From a virus (Duplodnaviria > Heunggongvirae > Uroviricota > Caudoviricetes): a stretch of DNA of 37,564 nucleotides. Under the pieces are notes generated by a model. That model made no database searches. It saw only the letters and a list, made by a program, of their open reading frames with translations, and was not told where the DNA came from. The stretch lies in IMG/VR virus record IMGVR_UViG_2695420705_000025; one strand, 5' to 3'. This document shows, piece after piece, positions 6,557 through 36,918 of the stretch. Within the stretch, counting starts at the first letter, position 1. Every line of letters starts with the position of its first letter. The position numbers were made by a program, and so were the translations under genes.

Positions 6557-6865
6557 ATGAATAATGGTGTATTTTCAAAATCAGAAGAGCTTGCCGCCCT
6601 GCTGATTGCCGGTGGTTTGCCGAAAAAAGAAGTGCATGACTTTGTGAATTTTGTATATGAGACGTCTCATGAAAAAGCTATTGATGAGGTCATGGCGTAC
6701 CGGTTTGGCATTATTGCTGAGTCACTGAGTCCTCACTGGATTATTGAAAATCTCCGCGCTATTGCTGATGGCAACGATAAATCAGCAGCCGTTGCTGCAC
6801 TGGATGTGTTACGGCAAATGAGTCTGAAATTTTATCCTGAATTTATTCTGAGGGCCGCAAAATGA
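6557..6865 (+). CDS. Hypothetical early protein (about 102 aa)
   Basis: ATG at 6557 preceded by a GAAGGTGAG SD; the track ORF starts at 6542. Confidence 0.55.
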   Translation: MNNGVFSKSEELAALLIAGGLPKKEVHDFVNFVYETSHEKAIDEVMAYRFGIIAESLSPHWIIENLRAIADGNDKSAAVAALDVLRQMSLKFYPEFILRAAK

Positions 6866-9168: not shown

Positions 9169-9591
9169 ATGCAGCATGATTTATTTGAACACGATCCGGC
9201 AATTCGCCAGTTAATCGGACATATTGATAACATCCCGGCCCCGGAACTGGAATCACGCTGGCCCCGTTCGGTGGTTGATCTGATTGATGTTCTGGAAAAC
9301 GAACTGAAACGCCAGAACGTCAGCAATCCCCGTGAGCTTGCCCGTAAACAGGCCGTTGCCCTGTCCTGTTTTCTGGGCGGGCGGCAGTTTTACATCCCCT
9401 GCGGCGATACGATCCTGACCGCGTTACGCGACGATTTGCTTTACTGCCAGTTCAATGGTTGTAACATGGAAGAACTGCGTCGCCAGTATCGCCTGTCCCA
9501 GCCGCAGATCTACCAGATTATTGCCCGCCAGAGAAAGCTGCATACACGACGTCATCAGCCTGATCTGTTCTCACCTGAAAGCCAGAAATAA
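9169..9591 (+). CDS. C: C protein, late transcription activator
   Basis: 140 aa, MQHDLFEHDPAIRQLIGHIDNIPAPELESRW..., recognised as Mu C; paralog of Mor; GGGGGAAAA SD. Confidence 0.92.
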   Translation: MQHDLFEHDPAIRQLIGHIDNIPAPELESRWPRSVVDLIDVLENELKRQNVSNPRELARKQAVALSCFLGGRQFYIPCGDTILTALRDDLLYCQFNGCNMEELRRQYRLSQPQIYQIIARQRKLHTRRHQPDLFSPESQK

Positions 9592-9614
9592 CCGGCATCC
9601 TGCCGGTTATTTCC
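9590..9614 (+). terminator. Rho-independent terminator after C
   Basis: CCGGCA-TCC-TGCCGG hairpin followed by TTATTTCC, overlapping the C stop codon. Confidence 0.75.
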
Positions 9615-9682
9615 TGTCACCATAATCCCGCACCTGCCATCTGATTTTTTAGACTGCCATCAGAGCATTTTTTCAGGGAAGC

Positions 9683-15298: not shown

Positions 15299-16598
15299 TC
15301 TGGCGTATGCCGCACGCCTCCCGCCAAAGGAGGCTGTCGCGTATTTCCGCGCCAAAGGCTACAATATCACCTGGAACTGGTACGAACAACTGGCAGACGC
15401 GCACGCACGCGCCTTTACCGTTGCCAAAGCCACCCGGATGGATGTACTGACCACAATCCGTGAGGAAGTGGAGCGGGCTGTCAGTGAAGGCATCACCCGT
15501 GAGGAATTTACCCGCACACTGGCCCCCCGGCTGCAAAAACTCGGATGGTGGGGAAAACAAATCATCGTGGATGCAGACGGAAACGCAAAGGTAATCGAGC
15601 TGGGCAGTCCGCGTCGTCTGGCAACCATTTATAACGTCAATACCCGTACGGCGTATGGGGCAGGACGTTATGCGCAGATGATGAATACCGCCGATTTGTA
15701 CCCGTACTGGCAGTACATTGCCGTTATGGATGGCAGAACACGCCCGGAACATGCGCGGCTGCACAATATGGTTTTCCGGTATGACGACATTTTCTGGCAG
15801 ACGCATTACCCGCCCAATGGCTGGAACTGCCGCTGTCGCGTCCGGGCGCTGTCTGCGGCCCGCATGAAAGAACTGGGGTTACAGGTCAGTTATGGTGCGT
15901 CATTCATGAATACCCGCGAAGTGGATGCCGGTACGGATGAAAGCACCGGCGAGATTTTCCGCACATCGTCAACCACGTTTGACAACGGTCGGGTAAAAAT
16001 GACGCCGGATGTGGGCTGGTCATATAACCCCGGTTCGGCGGCATTTGGTACGGATCAGGCACTGATTCGAAAACTGGTGGAAATTCGCGACGCGCAGTTG
16101 CGTGAGCAGGTTGTTCAGACGCTGAATAACAGCCGGGAGCGTCAGCTTGCTTTTTCCCTCTGGCTTAAACGCCTGGCAGGATTACGTCAGACCGGTCATG
16201 AAATCCGGGCACTGGGTTTTATGACGGAATCGGTAGCTGAAGCCGTACATCAGCGCACCGGGAATATGCCAGCCCGTCTGCTTGTGATGAACGGGAAAAG
16301 TCTGGCGACCACTGCTGATGCCGCCCTGAAACCGGAAGATTTACAGCGTCTGCCGTCGCTGATGGCAAAACCACAGGCGGTATTGTGGGACAGGGAGAAC
16401 CACCAGTTGCTGTATGTTGTGGCAACCCGTGACGGCATGGCCCGGATTGTGGTCAGAACATCACAGACAGTCGGCAGGCAGAATGACCGTGCGGATGTGC
16501 TGGTCAGTATCAGCCGCGTATCTGCACAGTCGCTTGAAGCCGCGATTGCTGACGGGATGATTGACGTACTGGAGGGGCATGTGGAGGTGAATAAGTGA
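15279..16598 (+). CDS. F: F protein, MuF-like minor head / head morphogenesis protein
   Basis: About 440 aa from the ATG at 15279 (MPQQTIDLAYAARL...), overlapping the portal 3' end. Confidence 0.8.
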   Translation: MPQQTIDLAYAARLPPKEAVAYFRAKGYNITWNWYEQLADAHARAFTVAKATRMDVLTTIREEVERAVSEGITREEFTRTLAPRLQKLGWWGKQIIVDADGNAKVIELGSPRRLATIYNVNTRTAYGAGRYAQMMNTADLYPYWQYIAVMDGRTRPEHARLHNMVFRYDDIFWQTHYPPNGWNCRCRVRALSAARMKELGLQVSYGASFMNTREVDAGTDESTGEIFRTSSTTFDNGRVKMTPDVGWSYNPGSAAFGTDQALIRKLVEIRDAQLREQVVQTLNNSRERQLAFSLWLKRLAGLRQTGHEIRALGFMTESVAEAVHQRTGNMPARLLVMNGKSLATTADAALKPEDLQRLPSLMAKPQAVLWDRENHQLLYVVATRDGMARIVVRTSQTVGRQNDRADVLVSISRVSAQSLEAAIADGMIDVLEGHVEVNK

Positions 16599-17065
16599 GT
16601 CTTGATATGAACGTTGCCGTGGATGTGCGACGTATTCAGCTTGCACTGGATGAACTGGGAACCGTTACACGTGACCGCGCCATTCCCCGTGTGATGGCTG
16701 CGGCGCTGCTGTCATCCACGGAACAGGCATTTGAACGGCAGGCAGACCCGGATACAGGGAAAGGCTGGGAAGCGTGGAGCGATTCGTGGCTGGCATGGCG
16801 TCAGGATCATGGTTTTGTTCCGGGCAGTATCCTTACCCTGCATGGCGATCTGGCACGCAGCATTACCACCGATTATGGACAGGATTATGCCCTGATTGGT
16901 TCGCCAAAAATTTATGCTGCCATTCATCAGTGGGGCGGTACACCCGATATGGCACCCCGCCCGGCAGGCGTTCCTGCTCGTCCTTATATGGGGCTGGATA
17001 AGACCGGGGAACAGGAAATTTTTGATGCCATCAGAAAACGCGTCAGCGTCGCTCTGAGGCAATAA
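16595..17065 (+). CDS. G: G protein, virion morphogenesis protein
   Basis: 156 aa, MSLDMNVAVDVRRIQLALDELGTV...; recognised as Mu G. Confidence 0.8.
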   Translation: MSLDMNVAVDVRRIQLALDELGTVTRDRAIPRVMAAALLSSTEQAFERQADPDTGKGWEAWSDSWLAWRQDHGFVPGSILTLHGDLARSITTDYGQDYALIGSPKIYAAIHQWGGTPDMAPRPAGVPARPYMGLDKTGEQEIFDAIRKRVSVALRQ

Positions 17066-17261
17066 ACAGAATCAGGCATAAAATCAGCCGCACAGATTTT
17101 TTAAAACGCGCCACGGGATTTTTAAACCGGTATTTAACGGTGTATGAATCCCGTTTTATCTTCCTTCCACTTTCTTTCTCCATTACTCAAATAGCATAAC
17201 CCCAGATTTTCCCGCACCTCCCGCAAACTGACTGCTCACAAACCATGATGAGCAGCAGGAC
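17066..17261. promoter_or_regulatory. G-I intergenic region: expected location of the Mu central strong gyrase site and the C-dependent late promoter for I
   Basis: 196-bp AT-rich non-coding gap in an otherwise tightly packed late region, near the genome centre. Site identity is assigned by position and established Mu biology, not by a recognised motif. Confidence 0.45.
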
Positions 17262-18347
17262 ATGAAAAAACACGCGATTGGCATTGCCGCATTGAGTGCG
17301 CTGTCCATTGACGATGACGGCTGGTGCCAGCTATTGCCTGCCGGTCATTTCAGTGCCCGTGATGGTCGTCCGTTTGATGTGACAGGTGGTCAGGGGTGGT
17401 TCATCGACGGTGAGATTGCCGGGCGTCTGGTTGAAGGCGTTCGCGCGCTCAACCAGGACGTGCTGATTGATTACGAGCATAACCAGCTACGTAAGGACAA
17501 AGGATTACCCCCGGAACAACTCGTCGCGGCTGGCTGGTTTAACGCCGATGAAATGCAGTGGCGTGAAGGTGAAGGATTATTTATCCACCCACGCTGGACG
17601 GCGGCGGCACAGCAGCGCATCGATGACGGTGAATTTGGTTATCTCTCTGCGGTTTTTCCGTATGACACCGCCACCGGTGCGGTGCTGCAAATCCGCCTTG
17701 CTGCGCTGACCAATGACCCCGGTGCCACCGGCATGAAAAAGCTGACCGCACTGGCGGCAGACCTTCCCGACATCCTTCAACAGGAGAACAAACCCATGAA
17801 TGAAACGCTGCGCAAGCTGCTTGCGCGTCTTGGGGTGACGGTCCCCGAAAATGCAGACATCACCGATGAACAGGCCAGCGCGGCCCTGAGTGCGCTTGAT
17901 GCGCTCGAAACAGATGCCGGAAAAGTGGCGTCGTTATCCGCCGAACTGGAAAAGGCACAGAAAGCCGCCGTTGACCTGACGAAATACGTCCCGGTGGAAA
18001 GCTACAACGCCCTGCGTGATGAACTGGCACAGGCGACTGCACAAAGCGCCACAGCCAGCCTGAGCGCCGTTCTGGACAAGGCGGAACAGGAAGGCCGCAT
18101 TTTCAAAAGCGAACGTGCCTATCTGGAACAGCTTGGCGGTCAGATTGGCGTGGCGGCACTGTCGGCACAGCTTGAGAAAAAACAGCCCATCGCTGCGTTA
18201 TCTGCCATGCAGACCACCACAGCGAAAATCCCGTCGCAGGAAAAAACGGCTGTGGCGGTGCTGTCTGCTGATGAACAGGCAGCAGTGAAGGCGCTCGGCA
18301 TTACAGAGGCTGAGTATCTGAAAATGAAACAGGAACAAGAAAAATGA
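17262..18347 (+). CDS. I: I protein, prohead protease with C-terminal scaffold domain
   Basis: 361 aa; N-terminal part recognised as the Mu I protease, C-terminal half Ala/Gln-rich and helical, consistent with the nested scaffold (Z). Confidence 0.85.
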   Translation: MKKHAIGIAALSALSIDDDGWCQLLPAGHFSARDGRPFDVTGGQGWFIDGEIAGRLVEGVRALNQDVLIDYEHNQLRKDKGLPPEQLVAAGWFNADEMQWREGEGLFIHPRWTAAAQQRIDDGEFGYLSAVFPYDTATGAVLQIRLAALTNDPGATGMKKLTALAADLPDILQQENKPMNETLRKLLARLGVTVPENADITDEQASAALSALDALETDAGKVASLSAELEKAQKAAVDLTKYVPVESYNALRDELAQATAQSATASLSAVLDKAEQEGRIFKSERAYLEQLGGQIGVAALSAQLEKKQPIAALSAMQTTTAKIPSQEKTAVAVLSADEQAAVKALGITEAEYLKMKQEQEK

Positions 18348-19261
18348 TTGTCACCCCGGCATCCATTAAAGCCCTGATGACCTCCTGGCGTAAGGATTTT
18401 CAGGGCGGTCTTGAAGACGCCCCGTCGCAGTACAGCAAAATTGCAATGGTGGTGAACTCTTCCACCCGCAGTAATACCTATGGCTGGCTGGGTAAATTCC
18501 CGACCCTGAAAGAATGGGTGGGTAAGCGAACCATTCAGCAAATGGAAGCGCATGGCTACTCCATCGCCAATAAAACGTTTGAAGGCACCGTGGGTATTTC
18601 CCGTGATGACTTCGAGGATGACAATCTGGGTATTTATGCGCCGATTTTTCAGGAGATGGGCCGTTCTGCGGCAGTTCAGCCGGATGAGCTGATTTTTAAA
18701 CTTCTGAAAGATGGCTTTACCCAGCCCTGCTATGACGGTCAGAACTTCTTCGACAAGGAGCATCCGGTATATCCGAATGTGGACGGCACGGGCAGCGCGG
18801 TTAATACCTCCAACATCGTTGAGCAGGACAGCTTCAGCGGTCTGCCATTCTATCTGCTGGACTGCTCCCGCGCAGTCAAACCGCTGATTTTCCAGGAGCG
18901 CCGCAAACCGGAACTGGTCGCACGTACCCGTATCGATGACGACCACGTTTTTATGGATAACGAGTTCCTGTTTGGTGCCAGCGCCCGCCGTGCTGCCGGT
19001 TACGGCTTCTGGCAGATGGCTGTCGCGGTAAAAGGCGATCTGACGCTGGATAACCTCTGGAAGGGCTGGCAACTGATGCGATCTTTTGAAGGTGATGGCG
19101 GTAAGAAGCTGGGCCTGAAGCCGACGCATATCGTTGTACCGGTCGGGCTGGAAAAAGCCGCAGAGCAACTGCTTAACCGTGAACTGTTCGCGGATGGCAA
19201 TACCACCGTCTCCAACGAGATGAAGGGCAAGCTGCAACTGGTTGTCGCTGACTACCTGTAA
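18344..19261 (+). CDS. T: Major capsid protein
   Basis: 305 aa, MIVTPASIKALMTSWRKDFQGGLEDAPSQYSKIAMVVN...; recognised as Mu T. Confidence 0.9.
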   Translation: MIVTPASIKALMTSWRKDFQGGLEDAPSQYSKIAMVVNSSTRSNTYGWLGKFPTLKEWVGKRTIQQMEAHGYSIANKTFEGTVGISRDDFEDDNLGIYAPIFQEMGRSAAVQPDELIFKLLKDGFTQPCYDGQNFFDKEHPVYPNVDGTGSAVNTSNIVEQDSFSGLPFYLLDCSRAVKPLIFQERRKPELVARTRIDDDHVFMDNEFLFGASARRAAGYGFWQMAVAVKGDLTLDNLWKGWQLMRSFEGDGGKKLGLKPTHIVVPVGLEKAAEQLLNRELFADGNTTVSNEMKGKLQLVVADYL

Positions 19262-25416: not shown

Positions 25417-26904
25417 ATGTTTGAAGATGCTTTAAATGCCGTTAATGCTGTCCGGGATAAAATCAGCGGTGGTAAGAAAACAACCGGCAAAGGCACGTTT
25501 CGTAACGTGCCGTTTCTCGTCATCGAGGAGCAAAAACAGGCTGGCGGACGTCGCCTGGTTAAACGCGAGTACCCGTTACGTGATACCGGCGGCGTCAATG
25601 ACCTGGGGAAAAAGCTTCGCTCCCGTACATTCAGCGCCTGCATTCTGAACAGCAACGCAGAAACAGCCAGAGATGAAGCGGGTGCGCTGATGGATGCTCT
25701 TGATGCTCCGGGTAGCGGTGAGCTGGTACATCCTGATTTCGGCACTGTGGACGTCATGGTGGATTCATGGGAATGCCGCACTAAAGCGGATGAACTGAAT
25801 TATTACGCGTTCACCGTTACCGTTTATCCGTCGTTGCAGGATACTGCCCCGGACTCAGAGACAGACACCAGTGCAGCCGTACCGGCACAGGCCGTTGCTG
25901 TAACCGGTTCTCTGGGAGATACGCTGTCCTCTGTCTGGCAGACCGTAAAAGATGGCACTGCGGCGGCAACCGCCGTGATGGAAGCTGTAACCGGTGTCAT
26001 CGATGATATCAGTGATGCGGTGGACAATCTGGGGGTTACGCAGACTGTCAGCGGTCTGATGGGATCGCTTTCTGCGATGAAAGGCTCTGTGACCAGCCTG
26101 ATTAACCAGCCTGCCATGCTGGCCTCCTCGCTGATGGGGGCGCTGTCCGGCGTTTCATCGTTATGCGATACCCGGACAGCATTTTCCACATGGAACCGTC
26201 TGGCGCAGCGATTCGAACGTCGCCATGCCGCCACCGCAGGCAGACAGGGGACAATCACAACCTCGTACAACAGTCCGGTTGCAGAAAAAAATATTGCCAC
26301 ACTGAACTACGTCATGCTGGCAGCAGCACAGACATACCGGGCGGAGGCAGCAAGCCAGGCACTGACTGCGGCACTGGATTTCAGTCGCCGGATGGATAAT
26401 GCCGCCCGTGCACCTGTACTGGATGCCCCGTCCACCACAACCGGCACAGCCAGCGGGGCCAGCAGCACATCCGCTACCGTCACACAGGGACAGTTACAGT
26501 TAACTGCCATAACCCCGGACGGCGGCTTTTCACAGGTATCCTTTTCAGACAGTGGTACAGCCACGCCCCCGGTATTTGAAAGTGTGTCCGATATCGGAAA
26601 AACAGCCGCCATGCTGGGGGCAGCGCTGGATACCGTCATTCTGACGGCATCTGAGCAGGGCTTTTCGACAGACAGCGTTCAGCTTACGCAACTGCGTCTG
26701 CTGGTTGTTGCCGACCTGGAAAAACGCGGGCTGCAACTGGCAGGCAGTGAAACGCACCGCCTGCCGGAGACGATGCCTGCAATGGTGGCTCTGTACCGTT
26801 ACACAGGAAACAGCCGGAACTGGCAACGGCTGGCCCGCAGGAACGGTATCAGCAACCCGTTGTTTGTTCCCGGTGGTGTCAGTATTGAGGTGATTAATGA
26901 GTAA
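25417..26904 (+). CDS. N: N protein, DNA circularization protein
   Basis: 495 aa in the Mu N position downstream of the tape measure. Confidence 0.75.
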
Positions 26905-30667: not shown

Positions 30668-32022
30668 TGTTTTATATTGATAACGACAGCGGCGTAACCG
30701 TCATGCCGCCCGTATCCGCCCAGCGTAGTGCTATCGTTCGCTGGTTTTCAGAAGGTGACGGGAATAATGTTATCACATGGCCCGGCATGGACTGGTTTAA
30801 TATTGTGCAGGCGGAGTTATTAAACACGCTGGAAGAAGCCGGTATTCAACCGGATAAAACAAAATTAAACCAGCTTGCACTATCCATTAAAGCCATTATG
30901 AGCAATAACGCACTGCTGATAAAAAATAACCTCAGCGAAATTAAAACTGCCGGGGCATCAGCACAGCGTACAGCACGTGAAAATCTGGATATTTATGATG
31001 CCAGCCTGAACAAAAAAGGACTCGTTCAGCTAACCAGTGCCACTGACAGCCCCAGTGAAACGCTGGCAGCCACCGCAAAAGCGGTGAAAATTGCGATGGA
31101 TAATGCCAGTGCCCGTCTGGCAAAAGACCGGAACGGAGCAGATATTCCCAATAAGCCGCTGTTTATCCAAAACCTCGGTTTACAGGAAACGGTAAACAAG
31201 GCTGGTAACGCTGTTCAGCGTTCTGGCGATACAATGACCGGAAAACTGAATCTACCACAGACATCTGCATTCGGCGTTGATACCGATAATGCACTGGGTG
31301 GTAATTCCATTACTCTCGGAGATAACGACACTGGTATTAAACAGGGCGGAGACGGTGTCCTTTTATTCTATTCAAATGGACAACTGGCATTTGGGCTTCA
31401 ACCCGCATCTGCTGATTTTTATAAGCGGGTTGCATACATTCCTCAGGGAATAATTCCTGATGGAAGTGGCGCATTTGCAGACCAGTTGAATAATGCCACC
31501 GCGCCTTTTGTTCAGACGCAGTTTGCCTGGAATCCCACTCCTGGTGGTCATTACGTGCCGATAGTTAAGGGCTTGTCCATTCGCAATGGACAGGGCTATC
31601 CCGGCGCGGTCAGCTTTGGTTATTTGCTGACAGAACAGTATGGATTTCCGGTTCCATGTATTCATATGCGTGGCGATGGCGGTAATGATGCTTTATGGCA
31701 GTTTAACCCGAACGATAAATCTTTTATTTCACCGGGTGCTCTTGTTGCGGGTGGCATCATTTATAACACCGATGGAAATATATTTGGCGGGTGTTGGGGT
31801 TCAAATTTAGCTGATTATCTCAATAGCACATATGTAAGAGACATTCGACTTGGTAGCGCAGAATCAATATCAGCATGGCGAGGCCCTGGTTACTGGGATA
31901 CTTCTGGATATGTTCTGACCGCAGCCGGAAACAGCAACACCGATGAATTTATTGATACATTAACCAGAAGGCCTATTCAGAAGTTGATTGGTGGGACATA
32001 TTATAACGTTGTGAGTATTTGA
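30667..32022 (+). CDS. S: Tail fibre protein S (constant Sc part fused to the variable part currently in expressing orientation)
   Basis: 451 aa. The constant N-terminal part runs to the left gix repeat (about 31167); the variable part lies inside the invertible segment. Confidence 0.88.
31167..31203. repeat. gixL, left inverted repeat / Gin recombination site of the G segment
   Basis: CCAAAACCTCGGTTTACAGGAAACGGTAAAC is the near-perfect reverse complement of 34340-34375 (two or three mismatches); lies inside S at the constant/variable junction (encodes LGLQETVN). Confidence 0.85.
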
Positions 32023-32023
32023 C

Positions 32024-32551
32024 ATGATGCATTTAAAAAACATTAAAGCAGGGAACCCCAAAACACCTGAACAATACCAGTTAACCAAAAAAGCTGGAGT
32101 GGTCTGGCTTTATACTGAAGATGGTAAAAACTGGTACGAAGAACAAAAAAACTTTCAACCAGATACTATAAAAATTGCATACGATAAAAATAATGTGATT
32201 GTTACCGTAAGCAAAGATGTTTCAACTATTAACCCGGAAGGTTTAAGTGTTGTTGAAGTATCCGATATTACGGCAAATCGTCGCGCAGACAATAACGGAA
32301 ACTGGATGTTTCTGGATGGTAAAGTAGTAAAGCGGGAATATACAAAACAGGAGCTGCAACAGCAGGCAGAGTTACAAAAAGCCGCTTTGCTTTCCGAAGC
32401 GGAGTCTGTGATTCAACCGCTGGAACGTGCTGTCAGGCTGAATATGGCAACTAATGAGGAACGCGCACGACTGGAGTCATGGGAACGCTACAGTGTTCTG
32501 GTCAGCCGTGTGGATACGGCAAATCCTGAATGGCCACAAAAGCCTGAATAA
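32024..32551 (+). CDS. U: Tail fibre assembly protein U
   Basis: 175 aa directly after S; paralogous to the minus-strand 177-aa ORF (both start [11 protein letters not shown]...). Confidence 0.88.
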
Positions 32552-32556
32552 AAATT

Positions 32557-32576
32557 AAGGCCCGATAGCGGGCCTT
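32557..32576. terminator. Bidirectional hairpin between convergent U and U'
   Basis: AAGGCCCG-ATAG-CGGGCCTT stem-loop in the 28-bp gap between the convergent stop codons. Confidence 0.55.
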
Positions 32577-32579
32577 GTC

Positions 32580-33113
32580 TCATTCTGGTTGTTCCGGGAA
32601 TGTTACAGGAAGAACAGAGGTATCTGTGGCATCAACCTGCTGCATGTATAACATCCAGTTAATGAGTCTTTGCCTGTCTGAATCGCTGATAATTCCCAGC
32701 GCAAGCTGTGTTTGCCAGCACTGCGTTTCCTCTCTGGCCTGTCGCAGCAAAATCTGTTTCTGAATTTCAGCCAGTTGACGTAGTTCTTCATCAGTCCGGG
32801 GGCGTTTCATGACCTTGCCATCCTGAAACACCCAGTCACCGAGAATATCGGCCCGGCGATTCGCTGTCGTGTCGGGTAATTCGACAACGCTCATTCCTTC
32901 CGGGTTAATAGACGACACATCTTTTTCAATATAGCGAATGATACCTCTGTCATCGTAAGCGATTTTTAGTGTGTCTGCCTGAAAGGCTTTTTGTGCCTCA
33001 TACCAGTTCTTACCATCTTCAGCGTAAAGCCAGATAACTCCGTGTTTCTTTGTTAACTCATACTGTTCCAGTGTTTTAGCGTTACCCGCTTTTATGTTCT
33101 TTAAGTGCATCAT
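32580..33113 (-). CDS. U': Tail fibre assembly protein U' (alternative, currently non-expressed orientation)
   Basis: 177 aa on the minus strand, paralogous to U; follows S' on the minus strand. Confidence 0.85.
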   Translation of the reverse strand: MMHLKNIKAGNAKTLEQYELTKKHGVIWLYAEDGKNWYEAQKAFQADTLKIAYDDRGIIRYIEKDVSSINPEGMSVVELPDTTANRRADILGDWVFQDGKVMKRPRTDEELRQLAEIQKQILLRQAREETQCWQTQLALGIISDSDRQRLINWMLYMQQVDATDTSVLPVTFPEQPE

Positions 33114-33114
33114 A

Positions 33115-34362
33115 TTAAACGCTCGCTACATTATACCAGGTGCCATTTATATACTTTTGAACGGGTCTGTAATAAACGCCCGCTATATTATCGGCAGAGT
33201 TGGACCCTGTATCCTGAACATTAATACCAGACAATACATGACCTGACGGGCACTGGAAATTCCATGTTTGCCAGTTGTTCACACCATGATATTGCTGTGA
33301 ACCAAGACGAACATCTTTCACATAGCGGGAATCAAAATTCCCCCAGTTGCTGGGTTGTATCTGACCGTTAACAGCAAATATCACCGAGTTATCTGTATTT
33401 CGCTGACTATAGAAATGCCAGCCTGAATCATCACCAAGCTCTGCAACAGTTGGTCTTGACGAATTTCCCCACAAGCTAAATGATGCATTACGGGCAGCGG
33501 TATTTGCACTTGAAAGTGTGAAGAACTTACTTTCCCCAGCCTGAATACCCTTTAATGATCTTGCTGAACCATTTATAAAGCGGAATACATGCACACCATT
33601 AGCATAAGCATCCAGCACCCCATCACCATTTTGTTTAAACCCGGTATCGTTATCTCCTAAAACTATTGAATTTCCACCCAGGGCATTAGCCGTTCCAATC
33701 CCCAGATTTCCGCTAAAAATGGCATTAATACCGAGTATTGAGTGAGAACAATAAAACCCTCGCCCATTGTTAAAATCCAGAATGGCTTGTGCGTTCGTGC
33801 TTTCTGTCGCGGGATTAGTTGCTCCCCACTTATATGTTGTTTGACCGACAGTATAATCCTGAGTTGGAACAATAACCGTTAGCCCTTCTTCAGCAGAAAC
33901 CCGCACAGGAAAAGCCCTGCCTTCAACGTAAAAAACGCTGCATACATCATCTTCTTTAAGGCTTGTTACAATGGAATGGATTGCGCGCTCATTAGTCTGA
34001 TACGTCGAAAAATAACCTGCCGCATATGAACCACGATCAGTCCAGCCACCAGGCATTACCATTCCATTGAATTCGCAGTTATTCATTGCGTAATCACTAC
34101 TGGCACATGTGGTCGTTATAATCACTCTGGAAGCCAGCTCGCCAGTGCCGCCTGTGGAACGCCGGAAAATAACTGGATACCACTTTCCACCAATTGCATT
34201 AGACGGCGCATTAAATGCGTACTGCCGCATTCCTTTTTTCTTATCCACCTCGCCTTTGCTGTAAACATTAATGTTACTCAGGAAGCGATCCTTATCAGGA
34301 ATATCCGCGCCGTTCTGGTTTTTCTGTAATGCGCCAGAAGCCTGATTTACCGTTTCCTGCAA
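33115..34362 (-). CDS. S': Sv', alternative variable tail fibre domain; startless ORF that opens at gixR
   Basis: Minus-strand ORF whose first codons (LQETVN) are encoded by the gix repeat; the in-frame codon upstream is TAA and the apparent start is TTG. So it has no start of its own and is expressed only after inversion fuses it to Sc. Shares the motif [22 protein letters not shown] with S. Confidence 0.85.
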   Translation of the reverse strand: MQETVNQASGALQKNQNGADIPDKDRFLSNINVYSKGEVDKKKGMRQYAFNAPSNAIGGKWYPVIFRRSTGGTGELASRVIITTTCASSDYAMNNCEFNGMVMPGGWTDRGSYAAGYFSTYQTNERAIHSIVTSLKEDDVCSVFYVEGRAFPVRVSAEEGLTVIVPTQDYTVGQTTYKWGATNPATESTNAQAILDFNNGRGFYCSHSILGINAIFSGNLGIGTANALGGNSIVLGDNDTGFKQNGDGVLDAYANGVHVFRFINGSARSLKGIQAGESKFFTLSSANTAARNASFSLWGNSSRPTVAELGDDSGWHFYSQRNTDNSVIFAVNGQIQPSNWGNFDSRYVKDVRLGSQQYHGVNNWQTWNFQCPSGHVLSGINVQDTGSNSADNIAGVYYRPVQKYINGTWYNVASV

Positions 34363-34375
34363 ACCGAGGTTTTAG
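34340..34375. repeat. gixR, right inverted repeat / Gin recombination site of the G segment
   Basis: Reverse complement matches gixL; located 59 bp upstream of the gin start. Confidence 0.85.
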
Positions 34376-34433
34376 ATAATGGCTGTTTCCGGCCTGCATG
34401 GCATGATTTGCGCTTTTAAACGGGAGATCCAGA

Positions 34434-35027
34434 GTGCTGATTGGCTATGTAAGGGTATCAACAAATGACCAGAATACAGACCTGCAACGAAACGCTCTTG
34501 TTTGTGCAGGATGTGAACAAATATTTGAAGATAAATTAAGCGGAACAAGGACAGACAGACCTGGATTAAAACGCGCTTTAAAGCGCCTTCAAAAAGGTGA
34601 CACACTTGTTGTCTGGAAACTGGATCGCCTCGGGCGAAGCATGAAACATTTGATTTCTCTCGTAGGGGAATTACGAGAGCGAGGGATTAATTTTCGCAGT
34701 CTTACTGACAGTATTGATACGTCATCTCCAATGGGGCGTTTTTTCTTCCACGTTATGGGTGCCCTGGCTGAGATGGAACGAGAACTAATCATCGAGCGAA
34801 CGATGGCTGGACTTGCTGCCGCCAGAAATAAAGGCCGTATTGGTGGGCGACCACCTAAACTAACCAAAGCGGAATGGGAGCAGGCCGGGCGTTTATTAGC
34901 ACAAGGAATCCCCCGCAAGCAGGTTGCATTGATCTACGATGTGGCCCTGTCAACTCTGTATAAAAAACACCCCGCGAAACGAACGCATATAGAAAACGAC
35001 GATCGAATCAATCAAATCGATCGGTAA
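34434..35027 (+). CDS. gin: Gin serine recombinase (DNA invertase), copy 1
   Basis: 197 aa from a GTG start, MLIGYVRVSTNDQNTDLQRNALVCAGCEQIF... with catalytic serine in VRVST; recognised as Mu Gin. Confidence 0.92.
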   Translation: MLIGYVRVSTNDQNTDLQRNALVCAGCEQIFEDKLSGTRTDRPGLKRALKRLQKGDTLVVWKLDRLGRSMKHLISLVGELRERGINFRSLTDSIDTSSPMGRFFFHVMGALAEMERELIIERTMAGLAAARNKGRIGGRPPKLTKAEWEQAGRLLAQGIPRKQVALIYDVALSTLYKKHPAKRTHIENDDRINQIDR

Positions 35028-35035
35028 TACAGATC
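35001..35035. promoter_or_regulatory. Cluster of three GATC (Dam) sites, mom upstream regulatory region, copy 1
   Basis: GATC at 35001, 35019 and 35032, overlapping the gin 3' end and upstream of com. Mu mom is known to be controlled by Dam methylation and OxyR binding at three upstream GATC sites. Confidence 0.6.
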
Positions 35036-35109
35036 GATTATGTCTCAATAACCACACTCAACCCATGATGTTTTTTAAGATAGTGGCGAATTGATGCAAA
35101 GGAGGTGAG

Positions 35110-35280
35110 ATGAAATCAATTCGCTGTAAAAACTGCAACAAACTGTTATTTAAGGCGGATTCCTTTGATCACATTGAAATCAGGTGTCCGCGTTGCAAAC
35201 GTCACATCATAATGCTGAATGCCTGCGAGCATCCCATGGAGAAACATTGTGGGAAAAGAGAAAAAATCACGATCTCCTAA
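35110..35280 (+). CDS. com: Com-like translational activator, C-terminally altered copy created by the duplication junction (56 aa)
   Basis: Identical to com through codon 54 (zinc-finger cysteines intact), then reads IS-stop across the junction at 35271/35272 instead of HSDETVRY-stop. No mom gene follows this copy. Confidence 0.6.
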   Translation: MKSIRCKNCNKLLFKADSFDHIEIRCPRCKRHIIMLNACEHPMEKHCGKREKITIS

Positions 35281-35982
35281 AACTATTGAATTTCCACCCA
35301 GGGCATTAGCCGTTCCAATCCCCAGATTTCCGCTAAAAATGGCATTAATACCGAGTATTGAGTGAGAACAATAAAACCCTCGCCCATTGTTAAAATCCAG
35401 AATGGCTTGTGCGTTCGTGCTTTCTGTCGCGGGATTAGTTGCTCCCCACTTATATGTTGTTTGACCGACAGTATAATCCTGAGTTGGAACAATAACCGTT
35501 AGCCCTTCTTCAGCAGAAACCCGCACAGGAAAAGCCCTGCCTTCAACGTAAAAAACGCTGCATACATCATCTTCTTTAAGGCTTGTTACAATGGAATGGA
35601 TTGCGCGCTCATTAGTCTGATACGTCGAAAAATAACCTGCCGCATATGAACCACGATCAGTCCAGCCACCAGGCATTACCATTCCATTGAATTCGCAGTT
35701 ATTCATTGCGTAATCACTACTGGCACATGTGGTCGTTATAATCACTCTGGAAGCCAGCTCGCCAGTGCCGCCTGTGGAACGCCGGAAAATAACTGGATAC
35801 CACTTTCCACCAATTGCATTAGACGGCGCATTAAATGCGTACTGCCGCATTCCTTTTTTCTTATCCACCTCGCCTTTGCTGTAAACATTAATGTTACTCA
35901 GGAAGCGATCCTTATCAGGAATATCCGCGCCGTTCTGGTTTTTCTGTAATGCGCCAGAAGCCTGATTTACCGTTTCCTGCAA
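35272..35982 (-). pseudogene. Truncated second copy of the Sv' 5' region (N-terminal 237 codons)
   Basis: Exact copy of 33652-34362; the reading frame continues into junction-derived sequence (track ORF 35146-35982). Confidence 0.8.
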
Positions 35983-35995
35983 ACCGAGGTTTTAG
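35960..35995. repeat. Third gix site (duplicate of gixR), in direct orientation to gixR and inverted relative to gixL
   Basis: Identical to 34340-34375 at an offset of 1620 bp. Confidence 0.85.
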
Positions 35996-36053
35996 ATAAT
36001 GGCTGTTTCCGGCCTGCATGGCATGATTTGCGCTTTTAAACGGGAGATCCAGA

Positions 36054-36647
36054 GTGCTGATTGGCTATGTAAGGGTATCAACAAATGACCAGAATACAGA
36101 CCTGCAACGAAACGCTCTTGTTTGTGCAGGATGTGAACAAATATTTGAAGATAAATTAAGCGGAACAAGGACAGACAGACCTGGATTAAAACGCGCTTTA
36201 AAGCGCCTTCAAAAAGGTGACACACTTGTTGTCTGGAAACTGGATCGCCTCGGGCGAAGCATGAAACATTTGATTTCTCTCGTAGGGGAATTACGAGAGC
36301 GAGGGATTAATTTTCGCAGTCTTACTGACAGTATTGATACGTCATCTCCAATGGGGCGTTTTTTCTTCCACGTTATGGGTGCCCTGGCTGAGATGGAACG
36401 AGAACTAATCATCGAGCGAACGATGGCTGGACTTGCTGCCGCCAGAAATAAAGGCCGTATTGGTGGGCGACCACCTAAACTAACCAAAGCGGAATGGGAG
36501 CAGGCCGGGCGTTTATTAGCACAAGGAATCCCCCGCAAGCAGGTTGCATTGATCTACGATGTGGCCCTGTCAACTCTGTATAAAAAACACCCCGCGAAAC
36601 GAACGCATATAGAAAACGACGATCGAATCAATCAAATCGATCGGTAA
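36054..36647 (+). CDS. gin: Gin serine recombinase (DNA invertase), copy 2
   Basis: Identical to the 34434-35027 copy. Confidence 0.92.
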   Translation: MLIGYVRVSTNDQNTDLQRNALVCAGCEQIFEDKLSGTRTDRPGLKRALKRLQKGDTLVVWKLDRLGRSMKHLISLVGELRERGINFRSLTDSIDTSSPMGRFFFHVMGALAEMERELIIERTMAGLAAARNKGRIGGRPPKLTKAEWEQAGRLLAQGIPRKQVALIYDVALSTLYKKHPAKRTHIENDDRINQIDR

Positions 36648-36655
36648 TACAGATC
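36621..36655. promoter_or_regulatory. Cluster of three GATC (Dam) sites, mom upstream regulatory region, copy 2 (the one actually upstream of com-mom)
   Basis: Same sequence as 35001-35035 at an offset of 1620 bp. Confidence 0.6.
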
Positions 36656-36729
36656 GATTATGTCTCAATAACCACACTCAACCCATGATGTTTTTTAAGA
36701 TAGTGGCGAATTGATGCAAAGGAGGTGAG

Positions 36730-36918
36730 ATGAAATCAATTCGCTGTAAAAACTGCAACAAACTGTTATTTAAGGCGGATTCCTTTGATCACATTGAAAT
36801 CAGGTGTCCGCGTTGCAAACGTCACATCATAATGCTGAATGCCTGCGAGCATCCCATGGAGAAACATTGTGGGAAAAGAGAAAAAATCACGCATTCTGAC
36901 GAAACCGTGCGTTATTGA
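36730..36918 (+). CDS. com: Com, zinc-finger translational activator of mom
   Basis: 62 aa, [62 protein letters not shown], with CxxC...CxxC zinc finger; overlaps the mom start. Confidence 0.9.

Follow-up and report, generated by a model that had tools for sequence, protein, structure and literature searches.

The region between genes G and I of the analyzed phage corresponds, with a probability that we put at roughly 95%, to bacteriophage Mu's strong gyrase site (SGS), followed by the late promoter PI. The feature itself is already known. The Mu SGS was described in 1990 and was dissected genetically and biochemically up to 2006, and it has later been studied by Topo-Seq in vivo and by cryo-EM. 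A first-pass annotation of this DNA had placed the Mu SGS in the G–I gap on the basis of position. This placement was supported, with refined coordinates: the left arm of the site lies in G, and only the left ∼107 bp of the gap belong to the SGS.

Judged from its sequence, the window (the whole stretch of DNA that was analyzed, 37,564 nucleotides) is a Mu-family phage (Muvirus), with 97–99% identity to Mu, D108, and SfMu. Megablast searches with positions 16500–18000 and with both halves of the window returned Mu-family phages (Muvirus) only, at 97–99.9% identity; the matches were Mu, D108, SfMu, PhiR68_1, Mu_3F6, and several Mu-like phages of Yersinia pestis. Comparison with AF083977 showed that the window opens with the first ner base (Mu 1099) and closes with the mom stop codon (Mu 36602), so that the repressor gene c and both phage ends (the transposon ends attL and attR) fall outside the window, as does the early operator region. 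It does include the genes for transposase A, for B, and for the late activator C. Over positions 16966–17300, the best match in a complete E. coli genome was 98.5% identical. Position 16978 carries a T that is unique among all ten sequences compared (the others have G), a synonymous third-position change in G (GCT vs. GCG), and because of this base the window differs from every record searched.

Near the right end of the window, positions 33652–35271 and 35272–36891 form an exact 1620-bp tandem duplication, which could be either real or an assembly artefact, and which makes the window ∼1.6 kb longer than expected. The duplicated unit takes in the end of the invertible G segment, with the variable part of S′ and the inverted repeat on the right, as well as gin, Pmom, com, and the beginning of mom. 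Owing to the duplication, gin is present as two identical ORFs (34434–35027 and 36054–36647), and the 56-nt inverted repeat pairing with 31163–31218 occurs twice. In the semi-essential early region, ∼290 bp (6567–6858) had no megablast match to Mu between flanks that were 97–98% identical; here a small early gene has probably been replaced in mosaic fashion. The variable tail-fiber and chaperone part of the invertible segment (31212–34297) was 79% identical to Mu over 32024–32657 and otherwise unmatched, which suggests a host-range module unlike that of Mu.

The gap is bounded by the G stop codon (TAA, 17063–17065) and the ATG start codon of I at 17262, and covers exactly 17066–17261 (196 bp). 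The homologous gap of Mu (17860–18055) is likewise 196 bp long and, in the Mu annotation, exceeds every other intergenic gap to the right of ner, the next largest measuring about 94–105 bp; the earlier description of the gap as one of the few sizeable ones in the late region was correct. Its description as AT-rich, with runs of T and A, was borne out as well, the runs being present (Table 1) and the GC content being 43.9% against a window mean of 52.0%. This value falls in the lowest 11% of segments of 196 bp, and that of the left 107 bp of the gap (17066–17172, 40.2% GC) in the lowest 5%. The AT-richness of the gap is real but modest, and its composition alone is unremarkable. The gap feature is more than chance because it is nearly identical to an experimentally characterized element, not because of its composition.

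The alignment to the characterized Mu SGS, which the first-pass annotation had proposed as a check, was found. The gap was 100% identical to that of SfMu, matched Mu (AF083977, 17860–18055) at 194 of 196 positions, and was at least 96.9% identical to all 13 Muvirus records. Four features are marked in the homologous 196 bp of AF083977: a gyrase cut site, a terminator, PI, and the RBS of I. As an independent anchor, the 133-bp “Mu SGS” fragment that Sutormin et al. (PMC6379681, supplementary sheet S2) used for gyrase gel-shift/binding and supercoiling experiments mapped to 17018–17150 of the window with 131 matches out of 133. The mismatch at 17049, in the left arm, reflects true polymorphism. 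At 17087, the second mismatch, the fragment has C, while the window and AF083977 have G, the wild-type base. The fragment was amplified from pMP1000, a plasmid said to carry a nuB allele of the SGS (PMC6463007), and we infer that the C at 17087 is this allele.

Natural variants were also seen close to the cut. The prophage of E. coli RM8082 (L013, NZ_CP043825.1) has C for G at 17087, one or two bases from the cut, which is the same base as in the pMP1000-derived fragment, the reported gyrase-enhancing nuB allele. Position 17089 varies in another of the compared loci (L014), and positions 17090 and 17108 vary in phage Tongde.

The anatomy of the SGS was taken from reviews and later papers; PMC4982056 gives no coordinates for the site. 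The 150-bp site consists of a dispensable left arm from −65 to −26, the core, also called the gate segment, from −25 to +25, and a right arm from +26 to +85, the first 40 bp of which are essential (PMC6463007). The requirement for the right arm has been reported in PMC10052514, PMC6463007, and PMC11626157. Since the cut lies 20 bp past the G stop codon, a site of ∼150 bp reaches beyond the gap into the 3′ end of G (Table 1). The leftmost ∼107 bp of the gap are taken up by the core and right arm, and the ∼80 bp at its right end by PI and the RBS.

Table 1. Coordinates of the features in and around the G–I gap, given as positions of the window.
Feature	Position	Strand	Basis and remarks
Gene C	9169–9591		Late activator
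Gene G (gp31, virion morphogenesis protein)	16595–17065	+	ORF; annotated as G/gp31 in Mu, SfMu, and D108
Whole SGS (−65 to +85)	17022–17172	.	Mu 17816–17966 maps here, 149/151 identity
SGS left arm	∼17022–17062		In the last ∼40 bp of G; reported dispensable
SGS core (gate segment)	17063–17112	.	Cut in AAAATC^AGCCGC; 100% identical to Mu
A/T run	17078–17084		ATAAAAT
Gyrase cut site	17085^17086		misc_feature in AF083977, Mu 17879^17880
A/T run	17096–17106		ATTTTTTAAAA
SGS right arm	17113–17172	.	First 40 bp (17113–17152) are the essential part
Terminator-like RNA hairpin	17113–17159	+	ACGGGAUUU...GAAUCCCGU, then UUUUAU; within the SGS right arm
A/T run	17118–17126		ATTTTTAAA
A/T run	17131–17137		TATTTAA
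A/T run	17154–17159		TTTTAT
C-dependent late promoter PI	17183–17249	+	Mu 17977–18043 (PMID 2522923 as cited in AF083977), 66/67 identity
Conserved box of PI	17194–17205		GCATAACCCCAG (also given as CATAACCCC)
RBS of gene I	17250–17252	+	Mu annotation, 18044–18046
Gene I (gp32, head maturation protease; internal scaffold gene Z)	17262–18347	+	ORF and annotations

The arm boundaries are good to about ±4 bp, because the figure-legend numbering in PMC6463007 does not readily fit a 4-bp 5′ stagger and the partner cut may lie on either side of 17085^17086. The partner cut, 4 bp away, would fall at 17081^17082 or at 17089^17090, and the center of the 133-bp fragment (17084) favors 17081^17082. From −65 to +85, the window differed from Mu at two positions only. 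At 17049, in the left arm and inside G, it has T where Mu has C (Ala to Val); at 17167 (∼+80), the only difference in the right arm, it has C where Mu has T. The core and 17113–17152 were base-for-base identical to Mu (100% over about 17063–17152). Among nine close relatives, variable positions were found in the core (17068, 17076, 17080, 17087, 17089, 17090, and 17108) and in the distal right arm (17164 and 17167). Extra constraint on 17113–17152 was not significant in these nine relatives, with 0 variable sites against ∼2 expected in 40 bp.

The A/T blocks of the right arm follow the turn of the helix. T/A junctions at ∼17102.5, 17123.5, and 17135.5 are spaced by 21 and 12 bp, corresponding to two helical turns followed by one. 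In 48-bp segments starting at 17113, the amplitude of A/T content at 10.75–11 bp, as obtained by Fourier analysis, was in the top 0.1–0.6% of the window, within which such strong periodicity is not unique to the right arm. A search with the I protein, limited to one genome per species, recovered seven divergent loci whose I was 51–71% identical to that of the window: three from Kluyvera, and the others from Erwinia tracheiphila, Edwardsiella anguillarum, Apirhabdus apintestini, and an Enterobacteriaceae isolate. A G homolog lay upstream of I in all seven, and the G–I gap measured 207–245 bp in six of them and 691 bp in Edwardsiella. When the divergent loci were aligned, the invariant or nearly invariant non-coding columns were concentrated in TTTTAAA(A)CGC, (A/T)TTT(A/G)AA, and TTT(A/G)A. 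These TTTAAA-type blocks stand 20–21 and 11–12 bp apart, and conservation decays after about 17172. Since the phased blocks are kept in divergent prophages, the phased signal predates the genus Muvirus.

In the Edwardsiella anguillarum prophage, the long gap (L009, 810–1500, vs. about 200 bp) begins with phased GAAA/TTTGAAA blocks and continues with ∼500 bp of AT-rich sequence (40% GC), which may hold a small gene inserted between the putative gyrase site and I.

An Rfam search gave no match at E ≤ 1. When the window was scanned against the published 133-bp Topo-Seq consensus, the site ranked about 2,700 of 37,000 by S/W class and about 1,600 by base match, both being crude proxies used rather than the Topo-Seq position weight matrix. 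The scan was dropped as uninformative because its score follows GC content.

The C-dependent promoter for I, which had also been expected in this gap, was located there as PI (Table 1). Its only difference from Mu is a T instead of G at 17183, the first annotated base at the upstream edge. The PI box is in register with Plys (9609–9675), PP (26496–26562), and Pmom (35035–35101), and these four Mu late promoters have in common, upstream of the start site, a box of the form (C/A)ATAA(C/T)C(C/A)C; their activator C is phage-encoded. A promoter scanner called no sigma-70 consensus promoter between 16800 and 17500, as expected for an activator-dependent promoter. Positions 17183–17261 are the C-activated promoter and RBS for the I operon (head genes).

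A terminator-like hairpin is embedded in the right arm. The TransTermHP terminator of Mu (17908–17953) corresponds to 17114–17159 of the window and is 100% identical. Positions 17113–17154 fold with −19.8 kcal/mol (z = −2.9) into an interrupted stem with a long loop, followed by UUUUAU. A simple terminator scanner called nothing between 16800 and 17500, which is expected because the hairpin is long-looped. Together with its U-tract, this putative terminator in the right arm would probably end the upstream lys-to-G late transcript.

The same signals could also be read as those of an ordinary inter-operon region, in which a lys-to-G terminator is followed by PI, the AT-richness stems from these two signals, and gyrase has no role. 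The hairpin with its U-tract (17113–17159) and PI (17183–17249) are consistent with such a region, and terminator-like hairpins also occur in some of the divergent loci, but there they vary in sequence and position while the phased TTTAAA blocks are conserved. Moreover, the bases in question are identical to a site that is bound and cleaved by gyrase and is required for timely replication of Mu, and the roles are not exclusive, a terminator and a promoter being already contained in the main explanation. Since it is these bases that experiments have defined as the gyrase site, terminator and promoter come on top of the SGS and do not take its place, and a gap serving transcription only is very improbable.

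The inferred position of the SGS is 46.9% of the phage length, or 48.9% after subtraction of one 1620-bp copy, compared with 48.7% in Mu. For this estimate, the window was extended by the 1098 bp that Mu has to its left and the 115 bp that Mu has to its right; since the phage ends lie outside the window, centrality was assigned by homology with Mu. Both the substitutions and the shift bear on the possibility that the site, though derived from the Mu SGS, has lost its function, either through the changes at 17049 and 17167 or because the duplication has moved it off-center from 48.9 to 46.9%. However, the two substitutions relative to Mu lie in parts reported to be dispensable or distal, viable SfMu carries both of them, and D108 shares that at 17167, while neither the core nor the proximal right arm differs from Mu. 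The ∼2% shift is also small next to the several-kilobase relocations tested in the literature (PMC10052514, PMC3820752). Loss of function is thus even less probable than a gap serving transcription only. The least credible alternative is that the gap encodes a small protein, as in D108 gene 31.5 (42 aa) or the “hypothetical protein” of Mu_3F6, for although the D108 CDS (L003 706–834, “putative phage protein”; window 17071–17199) has a frame that is open in the window too, it begins with ATC, which is not a start codon, the + strand of the gap in the window has no ATG/GTG/TTG ORF of at least 40 aa, nothing is annotated there in Mu, SfMu, or the RefSeq E. coli prophages, and across the divergent loci the gap varies in length and does not align as a coding frame. 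The small-protein reading of gene 31.5 was rejected for its ATC “start” and its lack of a conserved frame, and both D108 31.5 and the Mu_3F6 hypothetical protein look like over-annotations of the SGS.

The SGS identified here agrees with that of Mu (AF083977) in its flanking genes gp31/gp32, the 196-bp gap, the embedded terminator prediction, and PI. It differs from the Mu site at 17049 and 17167 within the SGS and at 17183 at the edge of PI, and none of these differences lies in a part reported to be essential. In SfMu (KP010268), the identical gap is found at 18281–18476 and the site is unannotated. The gap of D108 is 97.4% identical, with three substitutions in the core (window 17068, 17076, and 17080); its SGS is likewise unannotated, and the doubtful ORF 31.5 lies over it. 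The gyrase motif of E. coli, as determined by Topo-Seq, extends over ∼130 bp and has a central cleavage region and arms in which A/T and G/C alternate with a period of ∼10.75 bp (PMC6379681). The right arm in the window shows this ∼10.75-bp periodicity, in common with the genome-wide motif and with the strong gyrase sites of pSC101 and pBR322. Nevertheless, the pSC101 and pBR322 sites were unable to promote Mu replication in place of the Mu SGS (reviewed in PMC10052514), and the Mu site is set apart from them by its right arm and by its central place in a transposable prophage.

In Mu, the binding of gyrase to the SGS is unusually stable and its supercoiling processive (PMC6463007), and gyrase cleavage has been mapped in vivo at single-nucleotide resolution (PMC6379681). 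When the SGS is deleted, replication of Mu is held up by ∼100 min and strand transfer at the ends also comes later; the best position for the site is a central one, and its right arm is indispensable (PMC10052514). The proximity of the Mu ends in vivo requires the SGS (PMC3820752), and cryo-EM has revealed one GyrA C-terminal domain with the right arm wound around it, an arrangement that presents the T-segment (PMC11626157). By homology, the present phage would use its SGS as Mu does. Host DNA gyrase would bind the ∼150-bp site, centered about 20 bp past the G stop codon, and cleave at 17085^17086. The helix-phased A/T blocks of the right arm (about 17113–17172) would allow tight wrapping on one GyrA C-terminal pinwheel, so that the bound gyrase would supercoil very processively. 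Because the site would sit in the middle of the prophage, the apex of a growing plectonemic loop would be formed by the SGS and its base by the two Mu ends. In this way MuA would bring the ends into synapsis sooner, leading to faster replicative transposition after induction.

As the window holds an essentially identical copy of the Mu SGS, its discovery value is small. It is of use for annotation: SfMu, D108, the Mu-like phages of Yersinia, and the RefSeq E. coli prophages leave the SGS unmarked or under a doubtful ORF, and the coordinates obtained on the window are transferable to records that lack the annotation. The phased TTTAAA blocks of the distant prophages, in turn, provide an easy means of spotting candidate strong gyrase sites elsewhere. 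More tentatively, the right arm of the SGS may double as the intrinsic terminator of the lys-to-G transcript, and the phased TTTAAA signature may be a family-wide predictive mark of strong gyrase sites in enterobacterial Mu-like prophages well beyond Muvirus (Kluyvera, Erwinia, Edwardsiella, and Apirhabdus), a combination that we regard as possible but rather doubtful. If the right arm does have this second role, a single stretch of 50–60 bp would combine the DNA-wrapping signal read by gyrase with the sequence of an RNA hairpin.
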